Shown: positions 1-51,000, numbered from the stretch's first letter. The stretch is 64,000 nucleotides of DNA from Candidatus Omnitrophota bacterium (GCA_029261055.1 JAJDCA010000075.1:77573-141572); one strand, 5' to 3'. Notes: generated by a model from the letters alone, not told the origin. Translations and numbers: made by a program.

Positions 1-2
1 AA

Positions 3-9000: not shown

Positions 9001-12000
9001 GGGTACAGCCATTATTGAGGCTGGCTAATTATAGTAGCGAACATAAAGCTCTTCATCCGGATGGTGAGGAAGCGGTGATTGAATTAGCTAATAAAGAAGT
9101 TTTTGCCTTGGCGCGTAAACATGATGGGGAGGCTATCATAAGTTTACTGAATGTTTCGGGAAAGGCCCTTGACCTGGAAATACCGATTGCACAATTTTTA
9201 GCTAATGACAAAATTAAGTCCGGACCACTATTTACACGTGGCGATGAGTTAAAGATGTCGGATCTTATTCGAGAGGAAGAAAAACATATTTCATTAGATG
9301 GGAATATTGAAGTAATACGTATTCATATGGAACCGTATCAAGCTCTTAAAATTGAGACAACTGTCAAGGAAGATGAAATTGAGGATGATAAGGGGGCGCA
9401 AAGAGTAATAAAACTTTTTCAAGAAGGGTTGGCGCGCGCCGCGGTGGGTATCGGTATTATTTTTACAACCAGTTTGTTCGGGTTAAGCGATATAGCTACT
9501 TTTTTCTCATTTTTTATAGGCACAGTATTTTTAACATGGCCGTTGCTGCACCTCGACGTCCTTCCCGTGGTGGGTCGATCGCAGACTCGGGTTCCCCAAT
9601 CCAATGTAGCAGCAGCTTTTAATGTTGAGCCATTTCAGGGCGAAGATAAAAAATCATCGAAGGAAATTATGGATGTCGCAACAATTGAGTTTGAAGAATC
9701 TATGGATGCGTTGGGTAAAGAAAATAATCTTCGTACTTTGGAAGAGGGCGTAAGCGTGGCGTCCTCTTTGGGAGACGGTGCAAGAATGTCGAGAATACAC
9801 ACAAGAAGAAAAATGCCAACGCCAGCGCAAAGAGATAAATCGTTTTCTTCTGTTAATCTCGCTTTAGCACATATTTTTGAGGAAGATATTTATTTAGATA
9901 AGATTTGGAAAAGTGTATTAATGGTTTTTGGTGTGATTCCAGCACATGAATATGGGCATCGTATTCCAGGAAGCCGATGGTTTGAGGAAGGGCCTTTGAT
10001 GGATAAAATTTTTACAGGCACGATGAATTTGACGCGCGGATCGCCGCTTTCTGTATTCTTTTGGGGACCGATGATGAATTTAGTGGTCGGTCTCGGAATT
10101 GTCCTTTCCGTTGCATTGATCGGATTCGGTAGCATCTTCACTCCTCTTGCCCTCTTCGCCGGCACACTTCATTTAGCTGCTTTTATTTACGAGTTTGTTT
10201 CTCCGCAAGGAGATTTTCAAAAATTATATCAAGGGCTGTCGCACCGTAACGTTACCTCCCGTGGCGGGTCGGTCGTTTCGGTTGTAGTAGCGGCAGCCCT
10301 TAATTATATAAAAAATTTAGCCGCTGTTGCATCTCGTCGTCCTTCCAGAGGTGGGTCGATCGCAGACTCGGGTTCCCCAATCCATGCAGCAGCGGCTAAA
10401 TTAGCTAAATTTATTTTAAAGTTTTTAAAAAGGTCGCCGTTTATAACTACAGCGTTCCGCTTCCCGTGGCGGGTCGGTTTCGCTGTTCTAAGCGGCATCC
10501 TAGCGGCGACCTTTTTATTCTATTTTCCTGACGTAACATTTGACTCGAGCAGTCACTGGGAATTCCTCCTCTTTAGTTACGCGGCTCTGAGCAATTCTAA
10601 AGATTCTCAAAATGATGAAACGCAAATAACACAAGGAGGTATACCCGTGAAGGTTGGTGACTTTATGTCGGTTGATCTTTTGTTTGGTAAAGAAGCAAAA
10701 AATATAGTGTTCATGAGCATGGAAAACGTCCGAGAGAGAAAAAGTACTGTTGTGATATTAAAGAATAGATCGACGGGTAAAAGATTAAAAGTAAAGTTTG
10801 TAGCAATAAAATCGGAGGGTACAGAAGGTCTTTTAGTCAAATTTCGAAATCCGCAACGATCGCAAGAAGACTCATCCGTTTATAAAATTTATAAGGATAA
10901 GGATAAAAAAAATAAAATAGTGTTGGCGGATAAAAATGGAATACACATCAGAAATTTAAAGAATTTAAGAGGACGTATAAAACTTAACCTTAGCGAGGTT
11001 GCTAAACCCCAGAGGAGTTCTTTGCTTAGAAATTTCTTTTCTGAAACGGAACAAGCATCTCATGCGCTTGCTGTGGAGGGGGACAGGGTAATTAGACCAT
11101 ATTTAGAGAAAATAGGATTTTCAGAGGAAGAAATTATTGAGCTCGACCCTACAGAATATTTTTTAAGAATTGTTAAGAAATATAGAAAGAAGTTTGGAGA
11201 AGATCAAGAAGGTGTTATGGATGAAGAGTTTGTTATTGCAGAAAGGGTCAACGGAAAATTCCAATGGCGCCTTAGAGGGGGTGAAGAGGCCTTTAGGGAA
11301 ATGGCACAAGTAAATTTACACTTACTAAAGGAAGAAATCGCTTATCTTCTTATGCAGATTAAAGTTCATGAAGCGGGGGAAGATGAAGAAGAAGGCATGG
11401 ATAATCAAATAAAAACTATTGTATGGGTAAGAAATAATATACGGCCTGAGAAGGACATTCCGACGGCTCTTGATATTCCGCAAAGTCTCAACCTTAATCG
11501 CACAGCTAAGGCGGCCCTGGTAGAGTACCTAAAAATTTTAAATAAATCAAGAAGAGTGAATCCTGTCGGGGAACGGATTAAAGACGCAAAAGGTACTTTG
11601 GCCATTTTGGAAGATAAATTGAGTGGGTTGGAACGAAATAATCCCAAAAAGCTTTTGAAGGATGTCAGGCGTATGAAAATATTGGCAAGCAAACTCATTA
11701 ATTCCATGCGGTTAAGAAGGGACATAGGCCCTGGATATTCTTATACATTAAGAACGCTTAATAAACGCGTTACACGGTTAGCCGTCGACACATTAGACGC
11801 CATATTAATAGCGGTTGATACCTCTGAAGCCGATAAAAAAACTACACGTAAACTATTATTAACGGCTAAAAGATTTAAAGACATTATTGAATATAGTATT
11901 GCCTACGACGACATTATTAATAATCGGGAAATTATTGATACAGTTAAAGGATACCGGATACCTTATATTTCATTGAATTACAAGGGAAGCGTGATCAGAT

Positions 12001-15000
12001 TATTAGTAAGAGTTATCAATGTGTTGATATTTGGTATCAATTTTGTTGTTGGTTATATTTGGGGCATGTTCCCTCGTATTAGAATATCGCTGAATGTAAT
12101 ATTGGCATCCAGTAAAATTCTCATTAACAAAGGGAATGTCATTTATGGAGGTTTATATGAAGATGTTTCGGAGGGAGGTTCACCCAAAGAATATTTTGAA
12201 GCCGTGGGGCTGGGGAGTTATGTAGGTATTCAGTATTTACGTAATTCTGTATTGGAAGGAGAAGAATTTGGATTTCATGCCTTTACCATAGTCCGTAAAG
12301 TGAGTAGTCGATTTTTTACGTTAACGTGGCCTTTTCTTGCCTTGCTCTTTGCTTCTTCGACCCAAAGTTTTTGGGAAAAAATAATATCTCAAGATTTTTG
12401 GGGAAAAATAGAGCTCACGGATTTAGCGATATCGTATGGCATGTCTATAGGATTCTTTTGGCTGACATTAATACGAAAAAATTTAAAGTATCAATTCTTA
12501 AAAGGGAGATTTAGGAGAATTATTCGAAATAAATGGGTGTGGCTTCATGGATTAAAAAATAGTCGTATTGAGGCTTTGCAGGCATTGAGGGCGGCTCGAG
12601 AGAGAGAAATGTCTGCCCCACAACCTAATGTCGATATGATTATTGTTGTTGTTGGCGACAGTAAGGATAACGAGAAGCAGGTCGCTTTTGAGAATATGTT
12701 TGCCGGTTCTGAAGGTACTATTTGGCGAAATGATGTCCCGGTATTGATCGTAAGAAATAATCCTGGTAAAGGAAGTGGAAATGCACTTTTAAAGATGGCA
12801 GAACTTTTTGAAAATATTCAATCTCCTGCACTACAGGTTATAGATGCCATGCAAGATGATCCTGATATAACAATGGTTAATAAGGGGGTTCAAGTGAACG
12901 CCCTTGATCATTTAACGGGTAAAAATATTGAAGATTTAAGTATTATTGTAGCTACCAATGGACACGATGTGGATCCAAGCAAAAAAGAGTTATTATTCCC
13001 CGGGCTGGAGCAAAAGCTCGCCACACTGGAATATCAACTATCTAATGGTTATCTGGGAGCGCAATATGATAAAGATAATGCGAAAAATGGGCTGATTTTT
13101 CTTGATGGTGAGGGTGTTTATTTAGGGCCTGTAGAGCGAAGAGGAGATATTACATTGCTTTCAGCCATGGTCAGTTTAAAGAAAGTTCGCAAAGGCTTAG
13201 CCTTTTTTCATAGTAATTCTGAGGACGATGAAGAAGGCATTAAAAATATTTATGATAAATTTGCATTTGATTTTGTTCGGGAAAATCATCCACTCCGATT
13301 TGAGTGGCATGAGTTAAAAAAAGAACAAGTTCCAGTTGTTACCGGTGTGAAGCTTGTGAGTTTTAAATTTTTGTCGCTGCTCAATGATTTGCAGGCCCAC
13401 TTAACACAGGTTGAAAATGGTGAGAAGGATTATGAAGACATTTTAGCCACTATTAAAGATGCGGATGTAAGGAAAAAACTCACGAAATACAGAAAAAAGA
13501 TTGCCGGCATAAGGAATTTACCGATACGGATTTCCGACATTATAACGCCTGTCTTGCGCATAAGTACCGGGGCAGATAAGAAGCTTATCAAGTACCTTGA
13601 GGTTTATTACGCCGGAATGAAGAAAAGTTTACGGAATTTAAAATATAAGAAAAGCCCAACGGAAAATGAAGATATCGTTACTTTTTATGCTGAATTGTTT
13701 AAGTTTTATCGGGAATGGTTTAAAGGTAGAAGGAGTCAACCTTTTAGCTTTTATTCTCCACAGGTTACGCATGACGAGGCATTTTATTTTAAGAGGTTCA
13801 AAGATGAATCTAAATACAAAGATGATTTAGATGAATTTAACTCCATAGTGGAGGAAGCTGAAAATAATAAAAAATCAAGGGGAGCAGTGAAAAAGGCCGC
13901 CGGTTTCTTATTAGCCGCTATTGGAATTGCATGGGCTATACTACCGGCCAAAACTTTCGGCGATGATCTTTTAAGTCCTATCGGTCAGGCGTTGGCAGAG
14001 ACCTCTTCCTTTTGGCAATGGGTGACGATGGCGATAGGTGTTGGCGTATTTGGTTTTTTCTTGAAAGAATCTAGTATTCTGGTCAGCCAAGAAAATAAAT
14101 TTTGGGAAGAAATGAACCGTCGGGATCATGACGAGACAGTTCGTGAAAGAAAGATTAAGTGGCGGTTTCATAACAGAGGGGATGAAATTCTCGACACCGT
14201 TAAAATGGTACATGAAACAACCATTCAGCGGGCTGTTCGGAGTCCCGGCTACATTGAAACATTGTCGATGACTTTATTCTGGAGCCGTCTGCTCGTAGGG
14301 TTCAATAAATTTCGGAATGACCGGGTCACCGGACGGGTCAGGGCGATTGATTATCTCGTCAAGAAAATACAGGAGAACTGGTATCATTTGCCTTTTGCCG
14401 GGGTTATGGCCGCATTAGCCGGGCCGATTGCGCATGCTAATGATATGTTTTCAGGGCAAATTGTTTCCGGGAAAAAGGTGGGGCAAGCACTTCTTGATGT
14501 GTCCATAGGAGATTTAAACGATGAGAAGGGTATTTTTTCCACTGCGATAACGGATAAAGCCGGCACGATGCACTTGCCGCCAAACGAGAAGGCGTATGTT
14601 CTATTGGCCTCTAAACAATTTCGTATTAAGAATCCGGACGGAACATTCCAACAGCCTTCGATTTTAAAAACGCCCAAAGAAAATTTGGAATTTATGCTGA
14701 AACAATTACAGTCAGAATCACCGGTGGGAGTTATTACGATGAAAGATGTCATTATTGCTATCCCGAGGGATGAACGTAATGACGAGCTTGCTTTAACCAT
14801 TGAGCGTCAGGGGGCTACCGTGTTGCGTTCAGACAAGTATTTAAATTCTGTGTCTGTGCAGGTTGTCCTGCGTGCGAAAGCAGTGCCTGAAGAGCAACGA
14901 ATCACGGCAGCCATGGGCGTATTTACGCTGGATGAGAATGGGTTGGCTGGAATTTTGGCGCAGGGTCAGGACGGAGTTCTTTCGGCAAGAGTTGTTCCGG

Positions 15001-18000
15001 AAAGTTTTAGAAATTCTATGTTGATTGAAAAGGACGGGTTTCGTAAGGCTGCCTTCACACGATCGGAGATACTAACTTTAGCTAATTTTGATATTTTCAG
15101 CCCTGATGAAGATAGTGATGCCGCCGCTAAAGAGTATTCTCGCAGCGATAAACTATTGGCTAACTCATGGATGAAAGAAGTGAAGGAGGCCAGAAAGAAA
15201 GATTTTAGTAAATATGAAAATACGTATGATCGAAAGAGACATGTGTATCAAGTTGCGCATGACTTTAAAATGGATGCACCTTCCTTTATGAACAAAACAC
15301 GGACCGCTATCAAAATATTAAACGATGGGACAACGTTAGCATCTTTGGGATTTATAACGACAAGAACTTGGGATCAGGAATTAACCGAACAGGATTTAGC
15401 TCCCCGTGTCGAAGGGGACAAAGGCAAGGTATTTATCCTTGGGATTATTAAGGATTATTCTGGGTTACAGCTTAACGAGAAACCCATTCCTGGTGTCAGA
15501 ATTAATCCACAAACTGGTGACGCGGTGGTGCATATTGTTTCGTTTTACGACTCAGGGCGTGTGACTATTAGTAGGGTGGTGTTTAAATTGCGCATAGGAC
15601 CTCTTAATCAGCAATTAAGTCTTGAAAAAGGCAATCCGTCAGAGGGGAAGGTCCGGTATGATTTGGCCGTGGTGTATGACCTGTTGGGGTATTACCGGGA
15701 AGCCATAGATCAAATCAAGAAAGGATTGAAAGTTCGTGGCGCTGAAAAAAATATTTATAAAAAATTGAGTGTATTGAAGATTAATACTAAAGGTTTGCGT
15801 GTGCTGGACGGCACAAAACATTGGTCCGGTGTTAAATCTGCCATAAGAGGTTTTAAAAAAGTGGCGAAAGCAATAAAAGACTTTAAAGAAAAGAATGGGC
15901 ATGATTTAGATTTGTCCCTTTATCCGAAGGACATGGTTCGACGATTATATGAATTTATGGGAGACGCGATTTACAGGAACGATCCATACAAGGCGGCACG
16001 GTTTTATCGGGAGGCCTTGAAAATGGCCCCGCATAATCTTGGCTTGTACAAAAAATATTATGACCAAATCTTAAAAGATTCTTTGGATAAGTATTTTGTC
16101 CTTTTGGAAGATTTCATGAAAAGAAACAAAAGAGATCCCGATGGTAAGGAAAAGTTAGACATGGTGTTGTTTCAGATTGGCATCAGGGTGGAAAATTTTA
16201 AGGGGTGGTTTCACCTTCAGGACAATTTAAGTGAGGGGGAATTAGAAAGGCTGGGCCACCGATTAATTCTCAAAACCGCTTTGGAGGACGAGCATCCGGA
16301 TTATCGGACATGGTGGTATTTATATATTGAACAATTATTGAAAGACCTTAATGAGATGAGTCAGGGTGATTTGGTCTCACGGTATGAGTCTTTCGGTATA
16401 ACCGATACTCTTGCACATAATGTGATTGTTTACCGGGAAAAATTAGATCAGGGACAAAAAATGCGCCTGTATCAACTTTCCGATATCAAACAGTGGCATA
16501 CAGGGGAAAATAAGGGCCTGATTGTAAATTTATTGTATCCAAAGACAGAATTCATTGAGCAATTATTTCATTTTAAACGCGGTAAATTAAATGAACTGGC
16601 TAATGAGTCTATTCCTTCGGAAACAACGAAAGGAAGTAATGAGCAAGCCGGCATTAAATCTTTCAGTACAGAAATAGAAGCAGGTCTGGTGGCCAAACAT
16701 GACTACGAATATCAAAGCAAAATTTTTTCTTTGGCGTGGGCGCACCGTGATCGGGCCGTTGAGCTTTTGGGTTATGGCGACAGCGTTGGGGCTGAACGAG
16801 AATATAATACCGCCATCAATCTGTTTAAAGGCAATCGGGTTTATTTTGAAGGGGTCTTTCCTATGGATGCGCAAACGGCTTTGGGACATATTTTTAATGA
16901 GATGTTCTGGATTTTTTCAAAAGAAAAATATAAAAAATTTGCCATAGATAGTTTTCAAGTCGTGATTGATAGAGAGTTATTTGATATTGATTATAGAAAG
17001 GGTTATCAAGCGGATAAAAAACTTCCGGGTTTTCAGGAAGAAAGAGTTCGAGATTTCGGAGAGCTGGGGCAATTATTTTCGATGGGAGATCGGTTTTATG
17101 CTTCTTATGCCAGGGAACAGTTGAAACGTTTAATGGACCCACAACAATACGATGCTTTAATTCAAGATGTAGAAAAATATATGATCTTACTTAAGAGGGC
17201 GCAAGAGCCAGAACAAAGCACACAAGATAATAAAGGAAATGAAAAGAAAAATTGGGATGATTTACGGGTGACGATTGAGAATATTTTTAAAGTCGCAGAA
17301 AAAAATCTACTGGATAAGGGCGCGGTGGGGTTTAAAATTCAAAAAGCGTTTAGAAAGGCAGAGTTAATAGAAGGCGTAGATGAGGAAAGTTTTTCAATCA
17401 AAGATTATTTAGGAAGCTTCACTTCAAAGGAAGATGCGACCAGTGCAGCAGAGACGTTAAATACTGAAAACAATGTCACCCAATATAATCCGTACGTCGC
17501 CGACTTCCTCATTTGGTTAGCCCAGGCATGGCAAGAGCATTGGGCGTCGCGAAAGGATTCTTCATCAGACGATTCCTCTAACGGTCGGACTATCTTGTCG
17601 ATCATTCTTTGGTTTGCCTTTCTTCCAACTCTCTTATTCACATGGGCCATGCAGGTAGCCGTTTCCTCTGGCGCTAATTTCTTTGGGCCAATCGGGAATG
17701 CTGTTGCCGAGCCGTCGTCTATAGGGACGGTAGGGACGTGGGTGGGGGCATTTTTAGGGATGATGGGGATTTTGGGGCGTATTTATATGACGGGTCAAAA
17801 TACGAATGCTCGTACAGAGGAAGAGAAAGAAATGCAAAGCCATTTTGATCCAGGGGCTGGGTTGGGGTTTTTAAAAAGTATGTTAGGGACAAAATTATTA
17901 TCCGTGAATCAAGCTTCTGATTCCGGTCAGGAAGCAGCTAAAGAAGAATCGGTTGAGCATAAAAGGTTTGCGCTTTTAATGTCGAGGCTTAGCGTGCATA

Positions 18001-21000
18001 TGTTGAAATTTATGGGCAAGGATTTAAAAGACAATACATCCGGCCTTTTTAGAGCCAGGGAGTTTATCGCTAAAGAGTTGCGTTTAGTTTGGCACCATTT
18101 CCCTTTTTCCGGTGTTATTGCAGTTTTGTCTCAGGAATTTGAAAAATTGAGAAATATGTATAGTGGCGAAGTTATGGTCGGCAGGGAAATGGGCGAAGGA
18201 CCTACTTTTGATGTTATTCCGGGGGATTTTGAAAAGAAAAAAGGTTTTATGGACGACAATGTATTGGGCACTCTTATTTCTATGGGCGTGACAGATGAAT
18301 ATGGTGTCAGGCATGTGCCTCCGAATATTGATGCGGAGGTGATTTTGTTGGGAGAAAAATTTAGGCATGCAAAAATTTCCATCAACAATACCCCTGCAGA
18401 AAATTTGGCTATTATGAAGCGATACATAAATAAAGACTACAAGGATTTACGCATAGCGGTTCCATTAGGCAAGAAATATGACAGGCTGGCGAAGGCCATT
18501 CGTCAAACAGGGGCTCAGGTCATACGTCTTGATGATGAATGGACCGGTCCTATATTTGCCTTGAGTGATTACGATCGTATCCCCGGAGAAAAACGCTTGG
18601 ATGCCATTATGGGGGTTAGGCCATTAAATCAGGCGGTGTTGTCAGCTATTCAAGTGATAACGATGGGCGGCCGGATACGTGCCAGAGTCGTGCCTAAAAA
18701 TATTTCAGCCAGACGCGTGGCGCATGAAATAAGTGACGACGATGTATTTTCTTATGAAGAAGTGATCCTGTTAGCTAAATTTAATATATTCAGACCGCAA
18801 AGATTTTATAGAAGAGGAACTATAACGGATGATGACGCTCGCGCATGGTTGCAAAGAATTGAAAAGGCAATAATTAATAGGGATGTGTCATCAAGGATGG
18901 GAAGAATTATCGGGAATAAAAGATATGCTTATCAAGTCGCGCATGACTTTCAGATGACATTGAGAGAGTTTGTGAGAAAAACTGAGATGGCGCTTATGCA
19001 AATAGGGAAAAAAGAAACATTCCAAACCCTTGGTTTTAAGGGGGCGGAAGACTGGGATAAAGAATGGACCGAAGAAGATTTGGCGCCGCAGCATAAAGAA
19101 GATCATGGCAAAGTATTTATCGTCGGGATAATCAAAAATTTTAATTGGATGTATGCAGATATAGCAGATAAAACCCCTGTATTGGGCGTCCGCATTGATC
19201 ACAATACTGGGGTTGCCAAAATTAACGTCATTGTAGCCGGAGCTTCAGGGAAAATTGATATTGTCGAGACAACATACAAAACCGTCATCAGCACTGAGCG
19301 TGAGAAATTGGAAAAAATTAAAAGGGTAGGTAATAAAAAAGTAGAAGCAGCCATAGCGTTAAGCATGGGATTAGCCGAAGCTGGACATTTTGCCTTGGCT
19401 TTGAACAATCTGAAAGAAGCCTTGGAATGGGATGGAACAAGCCCCACACAAAAAAATGATTTAGAGCTTATGATATACAATATTCAAGGATTAAAGGCAC
19501 TCACAGAAACCCCAAAGTTAGAGGATATAGAAACAGCGGTTATTCCTCAATTTAAAAAATCCCAGGAGAAAGCGGGGGCAAACGATACGTATCGTCTTGG
19601 CCATATGCTCAGGAGAGTGTATGAATACTTAGGAGATGCGTATAAAAATCAAAAGAAATATTCTACGGCCATTAAGTATTATCATAAGGCTTTAAATCAA
19701 AATCATCAGGATAGTTTTCTTTATAATAAATTGTTTAAACAGGTGATGGAGAAAACCATCGCACGGTATAGAAGACAAATACAGCAAAGGATTAAGATAG
19801 CAGGAAGTTACGAGGGACTAAAATCCTTTAAAGTAAGGATAGTATTTAAAACGCGTTTTAAATCAAGGCATCTTAAGCATAAAGAAGATCCGAATAGAAT
19901 GTTACGTCAATTTTTACTGCGGGCGATTTTGAAAGAAGAGAAAAAATATTATCATACACTTTTAATACGTTATTGGGATCAGCTGCAACGGGACATTAAT
20001 CAACTTTCGGGAGATGCTTTAGTACGTCGTTACGGGGAATTGGGTATGGATGCAAATAAGGTTAGGTTTTTGACGGCATACAAGAAAGGGGAGTGGTATC
20101 ACTGGCTAATATTTTGGAAGAAGAATCGGATGAGAGCCATAGGGCTTTATCAGATAGATAAGGTCAAGAGATGGGATTATGGTTTTATTACGCGGTTAAT
20201 GCTTCCGGGTAAAGAGGTTATTGAAAAGTTATTTAATATCAGAGGTGGGCTGGCCAATGAATCAGAAAGAGAAGATATCCCTTCAGTGGAGGATCCGGTT
20301 GCTATGTTAGGCATGCGTCTTAAATTTTCCAGAGAAGAGCAACGGGAAGGTATTGTGAGAATGGATATAGGAAGGAATTATCAAAGGGAGGCTTTTTCCT
20401 TGGCGATGACGTTCCGGGATATAGGGGCCGAGTTATTTAGTGATGGACAGAAAAAAGGGGCTGAAAAAAATTATCGTCAGGCAACGGAGATACTTGAAAA
20501 AAATAGAGAACATTTTGAAGCGATATTTACTTTGACCGCTCAATTAAGACTGGCTGAAATCTATGAAGAAATGGAACAATTTTTTCCGGATCAAGGATAT
20601 TTAGACAGAGCGATCCTGGCCTATGAAATTATGACGGATAAAGAAAAATTTTATGAGGCGTATAAATATTTTAATGGGAAAGAGCGGAACCGACGAGATT
20701 TTGAAGGGATTATAGAATTTTATGGAAAAGAATTAATCAGGCGGGCCCAAGAACGGTTAAATCAATTACAGCCCTCCGAAGAGAAATCAAAAAAGAAGGA
20801 TAAGAAAGATGAAATACTTCGTACGATATCTTTATTGGGGCAGGCTCATATTCAGGCGGATCATTTAACAGAAGCAGAATTAACGAAAGCAAATACAAAG
20901 ATAGAATCTCTTGTTCAAAAAGGACGTGAATCGGAGCATATACAGACTACGGTTATTATTACCAGAGAAAATGAACATAGTAAATTTGTGAGGGCTGGCC

Positions 21001-39000: not shown

Positions 39001-42000
39001 GCAATGAAAATATTACGGGTTTAAGCGGCGGGAAGATAGTGTTTGAGAAAATTTCTATTAAAGAAAAAAGAGGCAATCTCATAGATGTCTTTATTCCTGT
39101 TCAGGTAAGTAATCAGCAGGAAAAGTTGAAAGCGATTGTTCGATTAGCCGTCGCACAGGAATTAGATAATACGGCTCCCTACTATATTGTTCCGGCCACG
39201 CATATTTTTTCTCGAGACTCCAATGGTAGAATTCATAACCATCCTTATGTCGTGCATTCTAAGGGAAAACGTATCTTAATTCACAAAGGATTTTTTGATG
39301 ATAAGGGGCAAAGTATGGCGGCTGAACTTAATCAAATTTTTCGTATTCCCATGGATAAGAATAAAAATAGAGTGGGAGATAATAGATTTAAAGGGCCGAT
39401 TAAGGGATTGGGGGATGCCCTTCTTTATATCACCTTACGCCAAGGATTTAAAGAGGTTCAGCATTTTCCAATTTCGAAAGAACAACGTGAGGCCGAGGTT
39501 GTTTACCAGCTCATAAGTCTTGTAGGGATTTTTCATGATGACACTATTGTCGCAAAGGTGGGCCAGCACCTTCAGGAAAAGAAAATTATTGCGGATAGGT
39601 TTTACAAAAGGCTTCAGACGGTAAAAAAGATCATTCTTTATTTTCTAGAGAGAAAATTTGTACGTCATTACCAAAAAGGAATTTTCAAAGAAATTTTTCA
39701 GAAGTTTGACAAGGCTACCTTCGCGACTCATTTAGCCAAGAATGGGAGCTTTGATGTGGGAGGAGAACATTGGTTGCGAAGAACACAATACGCTTTGTAT
39801 CCCATTGAATTTGACGTAGAAAACGGCAATGTTACCCGGGTACGGATCCTTGATGAACTCGGAGGCGTTATTGAAGAAATTGTATTTTATCGCCAAGAAG
39901 ATGAGCAAGGGACATTGTTAAATACCTATAGTTATGGGAGCCTTGATGAAAATAAAATAAACACCTTTGATAAGGTGTGGATAAAGCATGAGGACTTGAG
40001 ATTGGAAGAAGACAGTGTTTTTAGATTTATCTCTGTAGACCCTTTAGGAAAATTTAAATATTTTGAGCCGGGAAGCCGGGTCGAGCCTTATTTTGAAAAG
40101 GGAAGAATTACCAAGATTAAGATATTTAAAACGGGGAAGGTTGAAGAGAACACAGAGGGGACATTATTTGAACTTTATGACATCTATAACAAGGATGCAG
40201 TCTTCATTCGTTCTGTTTTTGTTGATACTTCTTCTGACCTCCCTCTGCAGGAATTAGCCGGTGAAGATGTGAATGAGGGGAAAGCCATAAGTTATAATTT
40301 TAAACATCAATGGGGTATTGCAAATGATCAACTTCTTACCTTCAGGGGGATAGGAGGCTGTTGTATGACAGATAAACTTCTTTCTCAAGAAGAGATAGCC
40401 CAAAAGAGCGATATGTATGCTCTTCAATCTCCTACGGTGAAAATGAAAGATTTAGAAAGAGATCTTCAGACCAGAAAAACCCTCTTAACCCAACTCAATG
40501 AGGCGTCTGAAAAAATATATTTTTCATTTGAGCAGGTACCTCAAGGCAATACAGGCGTTGTGAAATTAAGATTAAGCACCCTGTTCTCTTTACAAAAGAA
40601 TTTTGATTTTAAACAGATCGGCCAATTTATCTTTATTTTAGATGGTACAAAATATCATTATGAAGTGAGTGATATTTTGGATGAAGCTGAGTGGATAGTG
40701 CAATTGAGAAATCGCAACGGTTCCACGGAAGGCTTGCCTGAACAGGGCGCTTTTACAACAGCAGATATTTCAGGGCATAGGATAAAAGAAGAGTTAGCGC
40801 GCATTGAGCAAATAATAAAAGAGGTAAATATCAAGGAAGGCAGGGATGTAGACGAGGATGCAATACCATCAACACCGTATACGCGTCTTTTAGGATTAAC
40901 CCCGGATACTTCAGCGGAGAATGCCACGGAAATTATTCTTCTGAAGCAGGGGGAGGAACTTCAAAGGAAAATGGTTATAGGGGCTATCATTCAGCAGGCC
41001 GTTGCCGATGAGAAAAATGTTCTTTTGGTATCACGGAAATATCCGGATGTTGATCAGATTCTGGTTGTGATTTTAAATCAAGATCCGCATTTTCCTGTCC
41101 TTCGACTTGGGGCCAAACAATCAGGTTTTGATATGGAATTTCTCAAGAATTATGCTGCTAAGGTCTGGATAGGGGACCATGTGAAGGAAAATCTTGGTGT
41201 AGACGATGTACGCGAGAGTCCTGCGAAGAGTTTATTTCTCAGTAAGATAAAAAAAACCAAAAAAGGTTCTTTAATTGCTGCAAACAATGAGGGGATTGTT
41301 TCGGATACAAAATTCTTGACCCAAGGCACAGGCGAACAGCCCTTTGATATCATTATTATTGATCGGGCAGGCCAGGAGACCGTCACGGAGGCATGGGTGC
41401 CCATACAGTTTTTAAAGAACAACGGCAAAATGATTTTTGTTGATATGCAAAGTGCTTGGGAGCCATTTGGACTGAATAAGGCTCAGAAAAAGTATCTTCT
41501 TTTCCATGGCACGCAACAAAAAGATATCGACATTTTTAATAAAAGTTTTCTTCAGTGGCTGTTGGATTATGGGTATAAGAAACGTGAAAAAAATCTGGCA
41601 GATGATTCCCCTGATGTGTCAAAGGATACCGGTCTTATGCCTGACGGCAGCGGAAAATGGAGTAAAACTCTGCCGAATATATTAGGTATTGTAATCGGGT
41701 TGACCGCATTTTTTTCTGTTATGGATCCAAATGTTGGTTGGACGTTAGGATTGGAGGGCGTTGAGAATCTTAAAGGGTTTGATGTTGTGTCCTGGATTGT
41801 CACTTTGGGTATTGGTCTTGGGGTGTTGGCGGTTGGTATCACGGGCGGCGGGGCATGGTGGAAGAATTTGCCTGCAAGAGTGTTTTTTGTTTTTGCGTTG
41901 CCTCTGAAAGAGATAAGTCGTTTGGTTTTTGCTCTGATTCTGGGAGTTCCTCTGGGTAAGGGGGCGTGGAAACCCTGGCGATTATTGAGCGCGGTTCGGG

Positions 42001-45000
42001 TGGATGACTCCCGTGCCCCACCATGGAAAATTTTTATTATCCGCATTATTGGTCCGGCGGTTAATCTTTTGGTCGGTTTCACCGGATTCTTCCTTTTTGA
42101 CATTCCTTTATTTGACTTTACTTATGTTACATTTATAAGCACAGACACTTTCTGGTGGGTGTTTACTTTAACGAATTTTTTATTGTTTGTTTTTGATATG
42201 ATTTCTTCCAGCATTCTCAAACGCGGGGATGTGCATGAAGCTGTTGAGGGTTTGTCAAAGGGGTGGGATAAGGCCGTTAATAGGGGATTTTATAATATAA
42301 ATGCTAAAAAGTATTCTGTGGATGAAGATCCATTAATGCGCGAGGCAATGGAATCTGTTTTTGGGCAGGCTGTTCCTCAGGAGGTTATAAATCAATATGC
42401 AAATGAATTGCGTGTTCTTGATGTGGGGACGGGCAGGGGCCCTCTTCCTGAATTTGCCGCGACTGCAGGAGCTAAAATTATTGTCGGGATAGATCATTCG
42501 ATTCATATGCTTAAAGAGGCAGAACACAGATTTAATAATATAAAAACTTCAGCCAATATCCGTTTCATCAAAGGGGATGTGGAATATCTTGAGGATAGAT
42601 TAAAGGAATCCAAAATTACAGAACCATTTCATGTAACCACCATGTTTAATGTCCTGCCCGATTTAAAGAGAAAAGAAAATAAGTCTGTATTTGACGAGGT
42701 TTTTAAAGTGATGCTTGATGGAGGTTATTTCATTCTGGGTCAGAATATACAGCTTAATAAATTTGAGGATGAAAATAAGTGGAATATTAAAATTTTGCGA
42801 TGGAATATGAGGGGTTATCAAAAATTATTAGAAGAGACCGGTTTTGTTTTTGATAAAGTTTATGAAATTAAAAAAGTAACTTCAGATTTATTTATTTATG
42901 TTTTATCCGTCAGGAAACAGGATAAAAATTCTTCACAACAGGGATTGGACCCTGCCGGCATTAAGGCACTTGTTCCTCTATTGGTTACAATTGGAATTTT
43001 GATGGTTTTGGGAGGCGTCGTTGAAGCTGGAGAGGTAGAGGGTAATGAATTTTTATTCAATCAGGCAAGCATGGTGTGGACCACCATGAAGACACTTGCG
43101 GTCAGTGTGTGGAGTTTGGTGGGGTCTGTCGTGGGATTTGGGATTTTCTTTGGCATGGCTATTGTTCTAATTTTTTCTAAACAAAACTCTCCCGATAAGA
43201 CGAAGATTTCTAAAAATGAAAGAGAACAAACGACAGGTAATCAAAAAAGCTTGCTTCGTGAGTATTTCAATATTGTTTTAGAACAATTAGGGGAGAAGCT
43301 AGAGAAGATTGTCATTAAACTCGAAGACCGTGCAGGAAAACAGGTAGTAGAGTTTAAAGATGAAACTACGCTGCTCTTTGATAGTGACTTGGCCAGCCGG
43401 GCGCCGCCGTTGGATTCTTCTGATGCCGCATCCTTTCAAACACTTCTACGTGATATCCTTCGTCAAGAATTAGTTAGACATCGTGTGCATGGGGCCAGTG
43501 AATCAATGGCCGTTCGAGTAAGTCTTGATTATTTTAACCAATCAAGAAATAAACAAGAATTAGTTATTCTTCTTTCATCTTTCCAAAAATATTCCATTAA
43601 TGTGGATCAGCAGTATTTTGTTTTATTAAGAAATTTATTACCTCAAGAAATAGAAAAAAAGAAAACTGTTTTAACAGAGAAAGTGATAGCAGAAGCAGAT
43701 TATGCCAGTATTGAAGCCTTGGCAGCCTTAGAGCTTTCCGAAGCTGTTTTAGCAAATCAAGAATCAGATAAACAAGTCCTTGTTGCTGCCAATCTTTCAT
43801 ACGGTGGATTGGTAGTAGATATTATCGGACGTGATTTAGGCAATAATGACATAGATGTCGTTCGGACCAAGGTTGGCTCTTCAGAAAGTGAAAATAATCC
43901 ACATATATTTAAACCGCAGTTATTTGATGTTAAGACTTTGAAAAATTTGGTAACAGAGCAACCACACATAATTGTTTTGGATGGTACGTTTAATCCATTT
44001 GAGATTAGAAAGCAGGGGAGGCGGTCATTCGTAGGAGGCCGTTACTCAGATGCTTACCAGGGGTACAGAAATTTTGTATTGGCATTTAATTTAGCCCTTG
44101 CGAATGTCCAGAAAGAAACAAAAAGAGATGATCTGTTCTACCGTATTGGCAAGTTGAATGGATTTTTGAAGTCATTATATTCAAGTCATTATGGAGAAAA
44201 ATTTCTAGATTTTGTTCAATACCTTGAGTCTATTATGCGGGAAGTTGGTGATCAAGATTTACAATATTATTCTTTTGGATTCTGGAATCCTAACGGGTTA
44301 AATACAGTGTTTCGTGAATATAAGCAGCTGCAATTCAGAGCAAACGTGATATCTCCGGACAGTATCATTAAGCCAACGGTTATTTTTGCTAATGTTACGA
44401 TGCTTGACCAGGTTATTCCTCGCTCCCTTCATGAAGAGCATCATCCGCATAAACATGCGCCGGGATTCTTTGATTTAGTAGATTCGAAAGGTTTTATTAG
44501 AGAATATGATTGGCAGAGGGTTTCTTATCCGTTTTCTAAATTGGTAGGTGTTAGCCCTCAAGAAGATATTGAAAAAAATCAATTACTCATGAATTTAATA
44601 CATTCAAGATATCCTGAATTAAAGCGTAAATATTATCGGCCGGAATTGAAGGATGGTGAAAGTCAAAATCAAAAGCGAGGTACTTCAAACCTTAAGACAA
44701 TTCTTTCGCTATTGTTCACAATTGGAATTTTGATGGTTTTTGGAAGAGTCGTTGAAGCAGGAGAGGTGGAGAGTAATGAATTTTTATTCAATCAGGTAAG
44801 CATGGCGTGGACAACTCTGAAGACGTTTGTGGACATTCCTTTTGAGACAGGGGTGGCATTGATGGGGGCCATAGTTTTTAGGGGGCAACCTAAAGGTCGA
44901 CCAGTGCTCAAAACGCTTGTTCAGAATGGATTTTATTTGAGTGATGCCGAAGTAATCGTCAAAGAGCAGCAACTTTTTGCAAAGCGTGCCAAGATAGGAT

Positions 45001-48000
45001 TATCCGAACAGGATATTAAAAATATACATCGAGAGACTTACTGGAACACGCTTAATAATCATTTGAAATATACTGTGGCAGGAAAACGTGTTTTGAAAGT
45101 AATGATGATCAGCATACTTGTGGTTACAGGTTTATCCGTAGTGTTTCTGAATGGGCCATTAACAGAAATTTTGCAAGCGTTGATATTAGATTTTTTTGGC
45201 AGCGTAATGATTTTTACGGTTTTAGTAATGGGATTATTTTTGATTAAGACAGAAAAAATTTTAAATTTTATGGGTTTGCATCAGCCCTATTACAACAGAA
45301 TATTCCTATTCAATCAAAAGGAGATTAGTGAAAAATTTAGAAATATTCCTGATTTAAGCAAAAAAGCATGGCTTAAGTTAGTAGGCGCAAAAATATATTT
45401 TCAGGGTCTTATTGTCCATGAGACGGGACATCTGTTTTTTCCGCAAGCTTCTGAAGAAGTTCTTATTTCAATGAAGATCCTTCGTATTATGGAATTAGAT
45501 CAAAGTAAAATGACTCAATATGCATTTTTCTTATCCGCGGTTGATGGGGGCTCAATTGAAAGTTTTAAATTAGCACAACATGCTTGGCGCATAGGCGAAC
45601 GTACCGGTGATCATGAAAATGCCTGGGACTATTTAGTGCTGCTTGCTGAAGGAAAGACAAAAGAGGCTGAAGCAATGGCAAGAGGTAATGAGAATAGGGG
45701 CAATGATGATTCTATTCAGGTTAAGGTTTTTATTCCTTTGCCTTTGAGGCGTTATGTTGATGGTCAGAGTGTGGTTGAAGTAGAAGGGAGAGGGGCGAGA
45801 GAGGTGACGCTTAAGCAGGTCATGGAACGATTGTTTCGGGAGTACCCTGCATTAAAATTATATTTTGAAAGAAATATAGACGCAAGCATGACGAAGAAGG
45901 TAACAGAAAAAGCACAACAGATATTTTTCTTTGTCGATGGGAAAGACACTCCGGTGATTTTCAATCAGGAAGCATGGTCAAAGATTTTGGTTGAAAAAGA
46001 AATTCGCCTTGTGCCACACATGCATGGAGGGGTACTGAATAAAGAAGAGCGTATATTGCAAATTAAGGAGCTATTTGAGAAACGTGGGTACACGGCCAAA
46101 GAAGCGCAGCTCATTATTGACGTGCAGCAATTTTTGATCCCACATATCCGATCTTTTATTCCGAAGGATCTAGGAAAAAATGTTGGTATTATATGGATGA
46201 TTTATCCGCATACAGAAAGAAATCTTTTGCTGCATTCTTTGTATTTTGGATATGTGTTGATGGGGTGGATAACCCTATTTTTAGTGTTTTTGGGATTTGG
46301 ATTTATAAATCCAGAGGTTCTTTTATGGAAGGTCGCAGCTGGTCTGACATTGATACCTTTGGGCAGTTGGTACGATTCTTTGAAATACAATTTAAGAAAA
46401 CCTGGACATATTGGTTTCTTCAAAAAGGTTATTTTTCTCCCTCCAACAGGTTCCATCGATGCTCCGAATATTGTCCGTACGATGGTTCAGTCTCTTGTAC
46501 GTTATCAAGTAAGGGGCTTTTACCGTTATGGAGAAAATCTCGAATATGTCTTTGAGGCTATGGGCGCTTTACATTACATGGAATTGCACGGTTCTTTCAA
46601 GGGATCGTCTTTTAGCTCAAAGGCGAATGCTTTAGCCAGAGAGGCTCTAGAGGTCGGTAAAGAAGCTGGAGAAACCAAGAAGGCATGGACTTTTCTTGGC
46701 ATGATGGGTAATGGATCTAGAGAAGAAGTTGCTAGAGGGAAGGTTTTGGGGTTAAGTGAAGAGGAAATAAAAAAGACAAGCGCTTTTCGAAAGTTTTTCA
46801 GTTTCCGCGGCGCCTTGATGGCGGGATTGGGGTGGCTGGGTTTTGTTGTTTTATTTGGCAATGAGATTATGGAAAAAGGATTTATATTTGGAGGTTGGAG
46901 TGCGATACCAGCCAGTCTACTTCTTATGACGGGAGTCATCGGTTTTGTGACTCAATTCTCTTTAGCCTGGCGTATTCAGCGGGGTGTGAGGAGGCTTAAG
47001 GCATTGTTTAAGAGCGGCGAGATGGACTTGCCACCGCCGAGTACTGAAGATATTAAGTCTTTGGCTTTATCCATTATCGATCGAGCCAGGAAGACATCAA
47101 GAGGAGCATCTGTTGATATTAGATTTTATGAAACGTTAAGATCGTCTTTTAACGACATTCCTGAGGAACACTTAAATAAACCTGCCTGGATGGAAACGCA
47201 TTATGTTGACTCCCGGGACGATCGTGATAATGATCAACATTCCATTCGTATTCTTCATGTCAATATTCCATTACTAGATGCCATGAGTTCAGACCCGGAC
47301 GTCTTGCGGCGTATTCTTAAATCCATTTATAGTCACGAATTTTCCCATCTACGCGGCAAGGGAGAAGTTTATGCCTTCATAATTCAGAGCTTGAAGGCCT
47401 GGAGGATCTTTATTGGAGCTTTACCTAAAGCGATACTTCGGTTGTTACGCAGGATGGGCTTGGCAAGCCATTTAAGAAAGGTGACCCGACGCCTGATGTT
47501 TGTTTTACGTGCGCGCGCTGGGATATTTAAGACGATACTTTTATTTACCCTGGCGGCAAATTTTGTTTTGATGCGCTGGGCAAATGCTTTTAGTGACCAA
47601 GATGTTGCAGCCATAGGTTCAAATATTTTTAGTAGCGAGAATAGTGTAGGGATTTTAGGATTTTTGAGTGTGTGGTATCTGTGGAACACTGTTTCAAAAA
47701 GACGTTCTAAAAATAAAAGCCGACCTTTTGTTTTGAGAAATAAGATTTTATTCTTTCTTTATCGACGATTTAGAGTGATGTCAGCCAAGAGAGAATTTAA
47801 GAAAACGGTGCAAAAACTTAGAAGTAATTTAAAAAAAGGTATCCAAATTGATGTCATGGAAGGAACACAGGAATATAGTCAGGGATTGGTACAAGCTATT
47901 ATGACTTTTCTTAAGAGAAGAGGCGTTAGACAAGATGTGTCGGTTGTTTTATTAGGTTCTCTTGCAAGGGATATGACGCATGAGAGTAGCGATGCGGATA

Positions 48001-51000
48001 TAGTTCTTATTACAGATTCTTCATCTGCAGCTTGGGTTGAAAAAAGACTTTCTGGGTATTTTGGCTTGCGGGCGGCGTTAAGGAGCGTTTCTCATGAATT
48101 TGATACAATCATCGCAGGGAAGTTGATTTTTACGACGGAAGAATTTAAGGATCATATTGAAAATTTATCACAAAATATAATCCATTTTAGTGACAAAGAC
48201 AATTTTAAAGTTATAGTTAGTTCTCTACTATCTGCCCAACCTCATTTTTTCGCAAAAAAATCCCACAAAGATGCGATAGAAAATAGTTTGAAGAAATTAG
48301 CCGGAAATTTAGGGTTAATGTCGGCAATGAATATCTATGTACAAGAAGAATTAATAGAAAGTCGGAAAGTTTTTGATCAGAGCAACGCGTTGGATACTGA
48401 ATTAATTTTTTCTAATTTAAAACAGGCCCGTTTAGGTCAAAAAATTATTCATTCTCTAATTGCCTTGCTTCAATTTAGTGTGTTTCAGGAAACACGAGGA
48501 GCAGGTTGGCCTATATTTATGGCCGAGCAAGAAAATACAAAAGAAGCATGGCGGGCGTATCTTAATGCATTGGTAAGCAGACAAAATGTGTTTAAGAAGG
48601 AGGATGTTAATAAAATATTTGAGGGGTACGAAGCGTTTTTAAGTGCTTATAGGCCTCAAGGTATTAATAAAGATACGCTCATTAAGATTATGGAGGATTT
48701 ACGTCTTTTAGCTTTACAGAAAATGGAGGCTATTGAAAGTATGGCCGTTTTTGTTTATTTGCAGGGTCCTATTAAAAAGCATTTCAGGTCTAGTTTAGGG
48801 CTCGAGATAGGGCCAGTCACTATCAAACTCAAAGTTTTTGGATTTACCTTGGAGGAAGTTCTACATACATTAGAAATAAAGAATTATTTTGCAACTATTA
48901 AAAATGGGCAAATAGATGAAAATTTAACAATTTACATAAACAATGAAGAAGTGTCATTTCAGAATTGGAAGCACCAAAAAGTGCCATCCGGTGCGCAGAT
49001 AAAGATTGTTTCACATGCGCAAAATTATCATGAGGAAAGGAAGAAATCACAGAAATCTTTTAAGATTCTTGGGTTGATTTTGATGGCGGCTGCAGGGGTA
49101 ACAGCATTGTTTGCCGTATTCCCTCTGACGGGATGGACGAGCAGTATTCTTCCCGGGCTTGTGCAGGGTGCCGAAGGTAACATGGTTTGGTTCGGATTTG
49201 ACAAGGGTTTAGCGGGGATCGTTTTTGGGGCGGGATTGTTTGCGATAATGGGTTTCACTAGTGGCGCGTGGAATTTGCGTTCAAGTCAGGTGAACCCGGG
49301 TAAAAATAAGTTATTAGGTCCCGAGGCTTTTGGTCCCATTCAGCGGACGCGGTTGAGTTCTAAAAACGGAGAGCATTTTAGGAATGTTGTCGGCCGTGCG
49401 GTTATGGATAGTTCCGGTGCACTGCGTCCTGTGAAGGAAACTAAGGATGATTATCAGATAGCCTCGCGGCTTTCGGCAGTGACGGGAAGATTAGCTTTGG
49501 AAGTCTGTCAAGAGTGTGACTGGAGCGGGGTTATTGTTCAAGTTGTTCGCGATAGTGACCGGCTGGCGCGTTTTACGGAGAATAATGTAGGGGTAATGAC
49601 CATAGATGAGGATATCCTTACGATGATAGAAAAGGGACGCCCGGGGGCGTTAGAAACATTTGAACTCGGATACAAACACGAGCTTTATCACACGCATGTT
49701 TACAAAAATCGATTGGAGTTTAATCGTGTTTCGTGGATAGGTCAAGAAGAGCGTCTTGTGGAAGAGCTTTTTGTGACCGTGTTATACCTCAAAGATTTTC
49801 TTGCCTACAGCTCTGATACAAGAGAAGGCATTCTTAATCTTTTATCCGCGACAGATAATCCTTACGATCCTTTTCAATTCGGTAGGAATATCCTTCAGCC
49901 GATGCATGAAGGCGTCATTGAAAAGGGTCATTTACATAATGGTCAAGCTTTTCAGGAGACTTTAGTCGAGGTTTTACCGAAAGTTATCGCCTATATTACG
50001 GATACCGATTTTTATAATTATCCGGGTATTGATAGTGCTCGAAAAATTTTACGGGAAATACATCCTGATAATTTTAGAAAATATATACATGGATTAGATT
50101 TAAATTTACCTCCGGGCTTCATCGGGCGTTTTATTTATGCCGTAAAACGTATTCACGGGGTAGGCCGGTTTATTTTGGAAGACGGGGAAATGTATGAAGT
50201 TATGGTGGCGCCCTATTCTATAAATTATTCGAGAAATAGAGAAAATGAAAAGCGTAAAGAAAACGGCATGGTTAGTGTTTTTGTAGAGAATATAAGCGTT
50301 GGGCGTTCAAGTCCGAATGGTTTTAATGCGGATGATGGTACAGGTGTGGATCCTGTATTTGCTGGAAGTATGGATATGGCGACTATTGGACTTAATCTAT
50401 GGTTGGCACGTTTATTATTAGTTAAGGATTATATAAAATTGACTGCAAGTTCGGTAGAAATTATTACCCATCTTAGGGCGCCTAAATTGGACAGGCATGC
50501 TTTTTATTTGGTTGAGGATGGTTATCATGGGCATACATCAAACGCAAAATTAGATTTTGAGGCAAGGGCCAAAAACTTTAGGAAGCTTGGCTTAGCGCAA
50601 GTTATTCTTGAGGTGCTTTTGTCATATATCGCTCCAGGGGGTACAGTCACGCTGAGCATTATACATCCTGTTATTTTACGACAAATAAAAGAAGAAGATA
50701 TTCCTTGGGAAGACACAAAATTTGGAAAATTGTTTGCCAGCGTTGGTCTACTTAGAAGCGAAACGGGCGCATATATTGATCTAAATAAATTAGAACTTAT
50801 CAAACATACTAAAATCAGCACCCCACCGCGTGTCAATATCCAGTGGATTAATAAGGGCAATGTTTTTGGTTCGTATGCACCTACATTTAAACCACCCATT
50901 TTTTCATCCTTTCGTATCCACCTTACGCAGACCTGGAAATGGCTGAAGAATCGCCATCTCCCACCAGCCAATTTATTTTATTATTTAAGTCTGGTAATCT

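Follow-up and report, generated by a model that had tools for sequence, protein, structure and literature searches.

Giant bacterial proteins of 20,000-150,000 amino acids are known from the Omnitrophota, among which the so-called 'Archaeovorin'-type proteins have been described by West-Roberts et al. in 2023 (bioRxiv 10.1101/2023.11.21.568195) and in a 2026 preprint (10.64898/2026.06.07.730766). The possibility that such proteins do not act as one chain and are cut into smaller polypeptides has been raised, with only the C39 and S8 domains near the N-terminus suggested as the cutters, and HExxH, zincin or M50 modules are mentioned in neither of these two papers (10.1101/2023.11.21.568195; 10.64898/2026.06.07.730766). 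Here, the HExxH motifs of such a giant protein are described, encoded on a stretch of 64,000 nucleotides (nt) from a Candidatus Omnitrophota bacterium (GCA_029261055.1 JAJDCA010000075.1:77573-141572; hereafter the window, from whose first base all positions are counted). The sequence tips the balance slightly in favour of the view that this protein carries independent types of highly divergent, zinc-dependent hydrolase (zincin-like) modules, rather than one repeated module. The gene occupies nearly the whole window:

1..61652, plus strand: giant open reading frame (ORF) of at least 20,500 amino acids, with about 55 hydrophobic transmembrane (TM)-like segments and many enzyme domains (listed from 150)

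A single ORF of more than 20,500 amino acids thus runs on the plus strand from 150 to 61652, and no stop interrupts its frame upstream as far as base 1, so that the N-terminus of the protein is missing. Its architecture resembles that of the Archaeovorin-type giants, with which it shares a very long single ORF, many TM helices (about 55 segments along its length have the hydrophobicity needed to cross a membrane), domains that are highly divergent from their families, and the presence of glycosyltransferase, glycosyl hydrolase and methyltransferase domains; in addition, one relative of the beta repeats described below is annotated as Ca. Omnitrophota. Pfam domains are found in the ORF frame throughout its length, i.e., GT4 glycosyltransferase and alpha-amylase-like domains, an FBPase_glpX-like domain, TPR repeats, HD_5, GGDEF, an AAA_11/AAA_12 superfamily 1 (SF1) helicase, two methyltransferases, a nucleotidyltransferase, HTH_3 and a ThiS-like domain. 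The published Archaeovorin set consists of genes of more than 90 kb, while the ORF described here, truncated by the start of the window, has a length of no less than 61.5 kb. In contrast to the published proteins, no C39 or S8 peptidase domain and no NUDIX domain was found in the window, from which the N-terminus is missing, and the same is true of SecA. The last 12.2 kb of the window, including the final 9.8 kb of the giant ORF, is 100% identical to a contig of an independent Logan assembly (SRR15505515), and the ORF is therefore not the artefact of a single assembly pipeline.

A previous reading of the window, made from the sequence alone (the sequence-only reading), had listed at least eight HExxH motifs in this protein. 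All eight, i.e., HEYGH (9945), HEIYH (21570), HEFRH (23793), HELAH (27867), HELRH (36765), HETGH (45417), HEFSH (47334) and HELYH (49677), lie in the frame of the giant ORF, 0-5 nt from the positions given there, and two more had been missed, namely HEEHH (44430) and HELVH (60618), the latter outside the range that had been considered, which brings the total to ten. The amino-acid composition of the protein predicts 0.62 such motifs (Poisson P(>=10) = 1.3e-9), and neither 2000 global shuffles (mean 0.64, maximum 5) nor 2000 local shuffles in blocks of 100 amino acids (mean 0.62, maximum 4) approached the observed number, while controls with permuted motifs (H.E.H, EH..H, H..HE and others) gave 0-2 occurrences each. 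Glu occupies the second position in half of all H-x3-H pairs of the protein, and the five mutually unrelated motifs taken alone would have a P of about 4e-4 under the same composition expectation (Poisson). Sixteen other large proteins with a shared beta-repeat/helicase architecture, amounting to about 37,000 amino acids, contain no HExxH. The enrichment is real and specific to the giant protein, and the original observation is confirmed and stronger than first stated.

The same reading had proposed that a repeated module underlies several of the soluble motifs. A repeated soluble module does exist, yet the motifs are not copies of one module and fall into several groups: the copies of a membrane module (class A) align with one another, as do those of a soluble module (class B), to which the modules around the motifs at amino acids 12206 and 15090 can also be aligned, while the motifs at amino acids 7141, 15729, 16510 and 20157 cannot be aligned to any of the others past the pentapeptide.

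The class A modules invite comparison with the site-2 proteases (S2Ps; family M50), the core of which is defined as three TM segments with the HExxH and LDG motifs on separate segments (PMC10202637). Three copies are present in the giant protein:

9840..10337 (amino acids 3231-3396), plus strand: class A copy 1, with HEYGH at 9945-9959, GPMMNLVVG at 10065-10091 and PQGDF at 10203-10217
27732..28274 (amino acids 9195-9375), plus strand: class A copy 2, with HELAH at 27867-27881, GAIANLIIG at 27984-28010 and PRGDF at 28134-28148
41790..42281 (amino acids 13881-14044), plus strand: class A copy 3, degenerate, with HExxH lost, and GPAVNLLVG at 42051-42077 and KRGDV at 42219-42233 kept

Copies 1 and 2, the motifs of which start at amino acids 3266 and 9240, are homologous (30% identity, E 1e-7). 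The GPxxN-like and P-x-GDF motifs that had been reported to follow 9945 and 27867 are present, and the stretch that had been put forward as a third M50-like module without HExxH is a true paralog of the other two. The elements G-[PA]-x-x-N-L-x-x-G and G-D are retained in all three copies, and G[PA]xxN[LIVM]xxG occurs three times in the 20,500 amino acids, once per class A copy. As in the site-2 proteases SpoIVFB (8vjl), M. jannaschii S2P (MjS2P; 3b4r) and RseP, the HExxH stands at the C-terminal end of a hydrophobic helix, which in class A immediately precedes two or three strong TM helices; the GP motifs (GPMMNL, GAIANL and GPAVNL) correspond to the conserved G-P which in M50 opens the helix between the ligand-bearing helices; and an Asp in a [PK]-x-G-D-[FV] motif that closes the third helix is common to the three copies at a distance equivalent to that in S2Ps. 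The spacing from HExxH to GP is 39-40 amino acids, compared to 44-47 in SpoIVFB and MjS2P, that from GP to Asp 49-53 compared to 47-50, and the full span from HExxH to Asp 89-92 compared to 94. Class A differs from the site-2 proteases in that its Asp lies in P-x-G-D-F instead of N-x-x-P-x-x-x-L-D-G, and in that it is embedded in a protein of 20,500 amino acids, where it is duplicated and has one dead copy. The module may thus be called S2P-like in arrangement, and true homology to S2P has about an even chance of being correct.

The second group, class B, is a soluble module which is an orphan at the sequence level and is likewise represented by three paralogs:

23388..24074 (amino acids 7747-7975), plus strand: class B copy 1, intact, with the block PYYLIPAAYILS, HEFRH at 23793-23807 and the invariant Glu7894 at 23829-23831
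38061..38759 (amino acids 12638-12870), plus strand: class B copy 2, degenerate, HGFRR replacing HExxH (amino acid 12746)
39066..39770 (amino acids 12973-13207), plus strand: class B copy 3, degenerate, QGFKE replacing HExxH (amino acid 13098)

Strings of the L-R-H-E-F-R-H-I type had been described as flanking several HExxH copies. The strings are indeed there and belong to the three paralogs of this one module, yet they represent a single HExxH copy and two copies that have lost the motif; the (A/P)YY(L/I)xPAxHIxS blocks described along with them are found in the same three paralogs, at 23511, 38181 and 39171. A full HMMER search with amino acids 12150-13345 as query against 1.84 billion cluster representatives returned 18 matches, of which 16 were to the downstream beta repeats and two, the proteins P0011 (1126 amino acids, from an ENA metagenome) and P0012 (311 amino acids, from Logan), were to class B. 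These two are the only detectable class B homologs and carry the same blocks, with HE[IL][RH]HE intact in all three of their copies (two in P0011 and one in P0012); they differ from the giant protein in being stand-alone proteins on short contigs, without beta repeats, helicase, annotation or Pfam match. No homolog was retrieved by word-indexed searches, for which the queries were the class B region and the profiles of class A and of the six class B sequences. Between its two class B modules, P0011 has a gluzincin-type HEFIH-x16-NEGMTEY (amino acids 495-525), and P0012 ends in a TM region with HEVGH 19 residues from the C-terminus (amino acids 281-311) and a weak M50 match (E 0.38); the combination of class B with HExxH types is therefore also seen in proteins other than the giant one.

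The six class B sequences have in common the blocks DxPYxIxPAxHIxSxD, HLAG, LN and GxGDxxLxxLLxHExRHE, and we know of no counterpart to the first two. A Glu that in the window copy follows the second His at +8 (E7894) is invariant in all six aligned sequences, where it opens the next helix. AlphaFold modelling of the six-sequence alignment yielded a mean predicted local distance difference test score (pLDDT) of 68.5 and a predicted template modelling score (pTM) of 0.71. The model has strands between residues 46 and 80, HEFRH (138-142) on a helix spanning 127-144 (block pLDDT 85-89) and the invariant Glu at the opening of a helix spanning 150-168, so that in copy 1, the one window copy that has an HExxH, the motif helix follows a beta-sheet subdomain, as it does in zincins. 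In Foldseek searches of the PDB the six best matches were to an M61 aminopeptidase (E 0.023), YbeY (three chains) and selecase (two), with anthrax lethal factor at ranks 11 and 13, and in the viral library BFVD the top named neighbours were a phage metalloprotease (E 0.037), SprT-like proteins and a 'zincin protease' fusion. The ranking across these two structure libraries supports a small zincin-like fold for the class B model, from which no family membership follows. The model resembles the minimal soluble zincins (selecase/minigluzincins, SprT/Wss1-like proteins and the YbeY fold) in its small beta-sheet, its HExxH helix and an antiparallel helix able to give a third ligand; it differs from them in lacking a significant match (best E 0.023; query-normalised TM-scores 0.27-0.32) and in its length of about 230 amino acids followed by a beta-repeat array. 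In SprT/Wss1 the third ligand is a His at +6, while the candidate in class B is the Glu at +8, and HExxHxxxxxH, i.e., a motif with His at +6, is found at none of the ten sites of the giant protein.

Classes A and B are parts of a duplicated cassette of about 1,600 amino acids:

23388..28274 (amino acids 7747-9375), plus strand: cassette 1, comprising class B, beta repeats (about 23997-24719), SF1 helicase (26313-27551, Walker A GPVGTGKT) and class A
38061..42281 (amino acids 12638-14044), plus strand: cassette 2, paralog of cassette 1, comprising class B twice, beta repeats, a helicase-like region (40425-41564) and class A

The order class B, beta repeats, SF1 helicase and class A is identical in both. 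Cassette 2 has lost the HExxH of both its class B modules and of its class A module, together with Walker A (GPVGTGKT replaced by KQGEELQRK) and Walker B (DEG replaced by DRA). Such coordinated decay is the pattern expected if the corresponding residues are catalytic in cassette 1 and, since it shows how quickly the motif is lost when it is not needed, it argues that the nine intact HExxH motifs would have been kept by selection. The C-terminal half of the helicase is also missing from cassette 2.

The beta repeat itself is about 65-70 amino acids long, with a consensus like GGRxWxxFxxYPxAxVExDVxxGxVTxVRIxDxxG and no Pfam annotation, and lies at about 23997-24719, 38517-38849 and 39597-40259 in the window. 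It is common to 16 large proteins (P0001-P0010 and P0013-P0018), several of which then carry the same helical linker and SF1 helicase, and the source labels among the named ones include metagenome-assembled genomes of Omnitrophota, Endomicrobiales and Deltaproteobacteria. Ahead of the beta repeats, some of these relatives have a different conserved module in which HE[YF]xE is followed by SH and SPFH motifs (P0008 amino acids 635 and 2540; P0009 amino acid 1214; P0010 amino acids 650 and 1442; P0013 amino acid 1054; P0016 amino acid 1057). Homology of this module to class B was considered and is not demonstrable (hhalign P 0.1-0.18).

The remaining motifs are the following:

36747..36929 (amino acids 12200-12260), plus strand: HELRH module (motif 36765-36779), distantly related to the class B helix pair and carrying a Glu at +8
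45384..45554 (amino acids 15079-15135), plus strand: HETGH module (motif 45417-45431), a distant relative of the class B helix pair, about 60 amino acids past a TM cluster
21570..21584, plus strand: HEIYH (amino acid 7141), solitary, about 80 amino acids past a TM hairpin and upstream of the HD and GGDEF domains
47334..47348, plus strand: HEFSH (amino acid 15729), solitary, about 60 amino acids ahead of a TM segment
49677..49691, plus strand: HELYH (amino acid 16510), solitary, about 140 amino acids past a TM pair
60618..60632, plus strand: HELVH (amino acid 20157), solitary, about 90 amino acids past a TM cluster, near the C-terminus
44430..44444, plus strand: HEEHH (amino acid 14761), part of the His cluster HEEHHPHKH, immediately followed by a proline and without a hydrophobic helix ahead

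These soluble motifs were compared with the class B profile, and as a control 60 decoys were used in which HExxH had been planted in random stretches of the giant protein. The HELRH module at amino acid 12206 (P 3.5e-4 over 51 columns) and the HETGH module at 15090 (P 1.8e-3 over 39 columns) both surpassed all 60 decoys, the lowest of which reached 3.8e-3. These two modules and the intact class B copy (motif at amino acid 7882) share the spacing HExxH-x7-E, as can be seen when the HETGH module (HETGHLFFPQASEE) is set against the class B helix pair (HEFRHIAYPNLSEE). The others, i.e., 7141 (0.026), 15729 (0.077), 16510 (0.31), 20157 (0.65) and 14761 (0.31), did not surpass the decoys, and a single family of all soluble motifs was rejected for these five. 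Each of the four solitary motifs comes after a hydrophobic, helix-like stretch, at a distance of 60-150 amino acids from a TM cluster. HEEHH is probably a chance His cluster and not a zincin site, which fits the 0.6 copies expected by chance. For HELVH, an ImmA/IrrE-type reading, suggested by an HTH_3 domain 370 amino acids upstream, was abandoned on account of the ThiS-like domain and the three TM segments that separate the two.

A number of results weigh against a set of divergent zinc hydrolases. Only one of the ten motifs, ILTHELAHYL (amino acid 9240, class A copy 2), fits the strict PROSITE pattern PS00142, the other nine failing at one flanking or internal position, although this pattern is known to miss true zincins. 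When the ten modules were searched against Pfam, NCBIfam and PHROGs at E <= 10, none gave a significant match and a 22-residue M50 match to class A copy 2 was the sole relevant return: this copy, the only one with any Pfam M50 match, scores 13.5 bits to PF02163 (E 0.046, 22 residues) against a cut-off of 27.2, and copy 1 has no match. The motif NxxPxxxxDG, i.e., the LDG motif of M50, occurs nowhere in the giant protein, the third class A motif being P-x-G-D. The class A HExxH helices, which the sequence-only reading had placed within the membrane, are only moderately hydrophobic (mean Kyte-Doolittle 1.06-1.26), amphipathic with lysines, and weaker than the TM helices downstream. In hhalign comparisons of class A with SpoIVFB and MjS2P the HExxH and GPxxN fall in register, with P 3.2e-4 for the profile of two paralogs and 1.7e-3 for that of three, yet the match falls to P 0.24 once HExxH is masked, and decoys in which 28 other TM helices of the giant protein were given a terminal HELAH reached P 0.001-0.04, class A being no better than these decoys. 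Because of these controls the profile comparison adds nothing past an HExxH after a hydrophobic helix, and it was dropped as evidence for M50. Copy 3, which has no HExxH, aligns from GP to Asp with the S2Ps at a marginal P of 0.012, and the profile of the three class A paralogs retrieved no PDB chain at E <= 10. An AlphaFold model of class A built from the three paralogs is unreliable (pLDDT 46, pTM 0.30), and its Foldseek matches are meaningless. For class B, profile searches of Pfam, NCBIfam, PHROGs and the PDB returned nothing relevant, and all structural matches in the PDB and viral libraries have E >= 0.02, none being significant. For the four solitary motifs, Pfam, NCBIfam, PHROGs and the PDB gave no match, and their context offers no support. 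Finally, scans of GTDB genomes, JGI metagenomes and IMG/VR with a 601-amino-acid inter-motif stretch, the profile of class B and its intact copy found no orthologs. Of the M50/S2P-like character proposed previously, the order and spacing of the motifs stand, while the Pfam cut-off, the LDG motif and the decoy-controlled profile test do not bear it out, and class A is not a demonstrated member of M50.

Divergent zinc hydrolases are nevertheless compatible both with how the motifs of class A are arranged and with the fold predicted for class B. The modules of the giant protein are best modelled on the standard chemistry of zincins, in which case the zinc would be held by the two His and a downstream residue, an Asp in class A and a Glu in the class B type, with the Glu of the motif as general base. 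Class A would be a three-helix membrane module whose first helix ends with the two His of HExxH and whose third ends with the P-x-G-D Asp, these residues holding the zinc, with G-P/A-x-x-N opening the middle helix, and since this is the site-2-protease arrangement the module would most likely cut within or beside membrane-spanning segments. In class B, a beta-sheet is predicted ahead of the HExxH helix, and the third ligand, by analogy with small gluzincins, is likely to be the invariant Glu with which the next helix begins; the modules at 12206 and 15090 would share this helix pair, and the four solitary motifs are probably similar minimal sites. Metal binding, peptidase activity and substrate are all inferred. 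The most likely substrate would be the giant protein itself, cut into sub-proteins or freed from its membrane anchors. Put in its full form, i.e., as a membrane polyprotein whose S2P-like intramembrane modules and juxtamembrane mini-zincins cut the chain and its own TM anchors into separate enzymes, this idea is improbable in our estimation, and self-processing by the HExxH modules is a new and unproven hypothesis.

Several other explanations were weighed. The modules might be metal-dependent hydrolases that act on nucleic acid or on the proteins bound to it, class B being a YbeY-like nuclease or a SprT/Wss1-like protease that accompanies the SF1 helicase. Class B always lies upstream of beta repeats and the Upf1-like helicase within the cassettes, its stretch of the protein is probably cytoplasmic, and YbeY and SprT-like proteins are among its closest structural neighbours; however, the YbeY site is HxxxHxxxxxH and not HExxH, the His six residues past HExxH in SprT/Wss1 is absent here, the relatives with beta repeats and helicase are without class B, and class A and the juxtamembrane singletons would be left unexplained, so that we regard this explanation as unlikely. 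A similarly low probability is given to secreted or surface-exposed proteases directed against surface proteins of prey or host, which would belong to the toolkit for predation that has been suggested for the giant proteins of Omnitrophota. The literature does propose cell-envelope degradation and predicts most domains to be extracellular (predictions it calls unreliable), and the giant protein has glycosyl hydrolase and glycosyltransferase domains, yet an S2P-type arrangement is intramembrane, and at least the motifs at 7141 and 7882 share amino acids 7064-9220, which are without a TM segment, with the HD, GGDEF-like and ATP-binding helicase domains. Because this TM-free stretch of 2,150 amino acids holds those domains, including a helicase with intact Walker A, the two sites are probably cytoplasmic and not facing prey, which favours an internal role over an attack on prey.

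The motifs could also be relics, purely structural metal sites or pseudo-enzymes, decayed duplicated modules having accumulated. Three of the eight class A- and B-type modules are demonstrably dead, nine of the ten motifs fail the strict PROSITE pattern and no family match is significant; against this, decay has removed HExxH fast in cassette 2, so that nine intact copies argue for selection, HExxHE is kept in all three class B copies of the unrelated P0011 and P0012, and the Glu at +8 is invariant, which leaves relics quite improbable. That HExxH simply occurs at a random rate, by chance or as an artefact of composition, has a practically negligible probability: HEEHH in its His cluster does look like one of the 0.6 chance copies expected, but ten motifs against 0.62, none of 4000 shuffles above five and control permutations found 0-2 times refute it for the set. 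Independent types of divergent zinc hydrolase module thus continue to be slightly favoured.

Several further features of the window deserve mention. The GGDEF Pfam match upstream of class B, at about 22557-23102 (amino acids 7470-7651), is strong (E 9e-28), yet the GG[DE]EF signature is absent, and the domain, which is diguanylate-cyclase-like, may lack activity. A second Walker A-like motif, GTGGSGKT, lies at 33612-33635 (amino acids 11155-11162) in a region without a Pfam match. A tandem duplication of about 1,050 amino acids (24-33% identity) covers about 13911-17057 and 17622-20702 (amino acids 4588-5636 and 5825-6851), with the FBPase_glpX-like Pfam match in its second copy, and shorter TM-rich repeats with 52-60% protein identity are found at 54253-54339 and 57850-57936, amino acids 16937-17111 and 17507-17665, and amino acids 14257-14316 and 14834-14893, one 87-nt stretch among them being 92% identical in DNA. 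The giant protein contains just 10 cysteines in 20,500 amino acids (0.05%), all within five CxxC or CC pairs (amino acids 64/67, 8201/8202, 13404/13405, 16453/16456 and 18942/18945); by module coordinates only, the CC pairs at 8201 and 13404 are similarly placed in the two cassettes, past the beta repeats and ahead of the helicase region, and several related large proteins are likewise very cysteine-poor. A complete mutL gene (61828-63681, minus strand) is convergent to the giant ORF and lies 176 nt past its stop, and the exact MutL protein is on record only in the Logan contig SRR15505515_378.

Giant proteins of this kind are already known; the sequence-orphan, putative zincin variants are new. 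Class B is extremely rare, two other proteins carrying it among 1.84 billion representatives, and if active it would define a new zincin family; class A, if a true S2P relative, would represent an intramembrane protease that is part of the very protein it probably cuts. The giant protein offers nine concrete candidate catalytic sites along its chain, with named residues, and the decayed cassette 2 serves as a natural negative control. These modules are candidates for the enzymes that might cut giant proteins into working pieces, and a self-processing polyprotein, if true, would be the bacterial equivalent of the maturation of viral polyproteins, with protease families that lack catalogued relatives doing the cutting.

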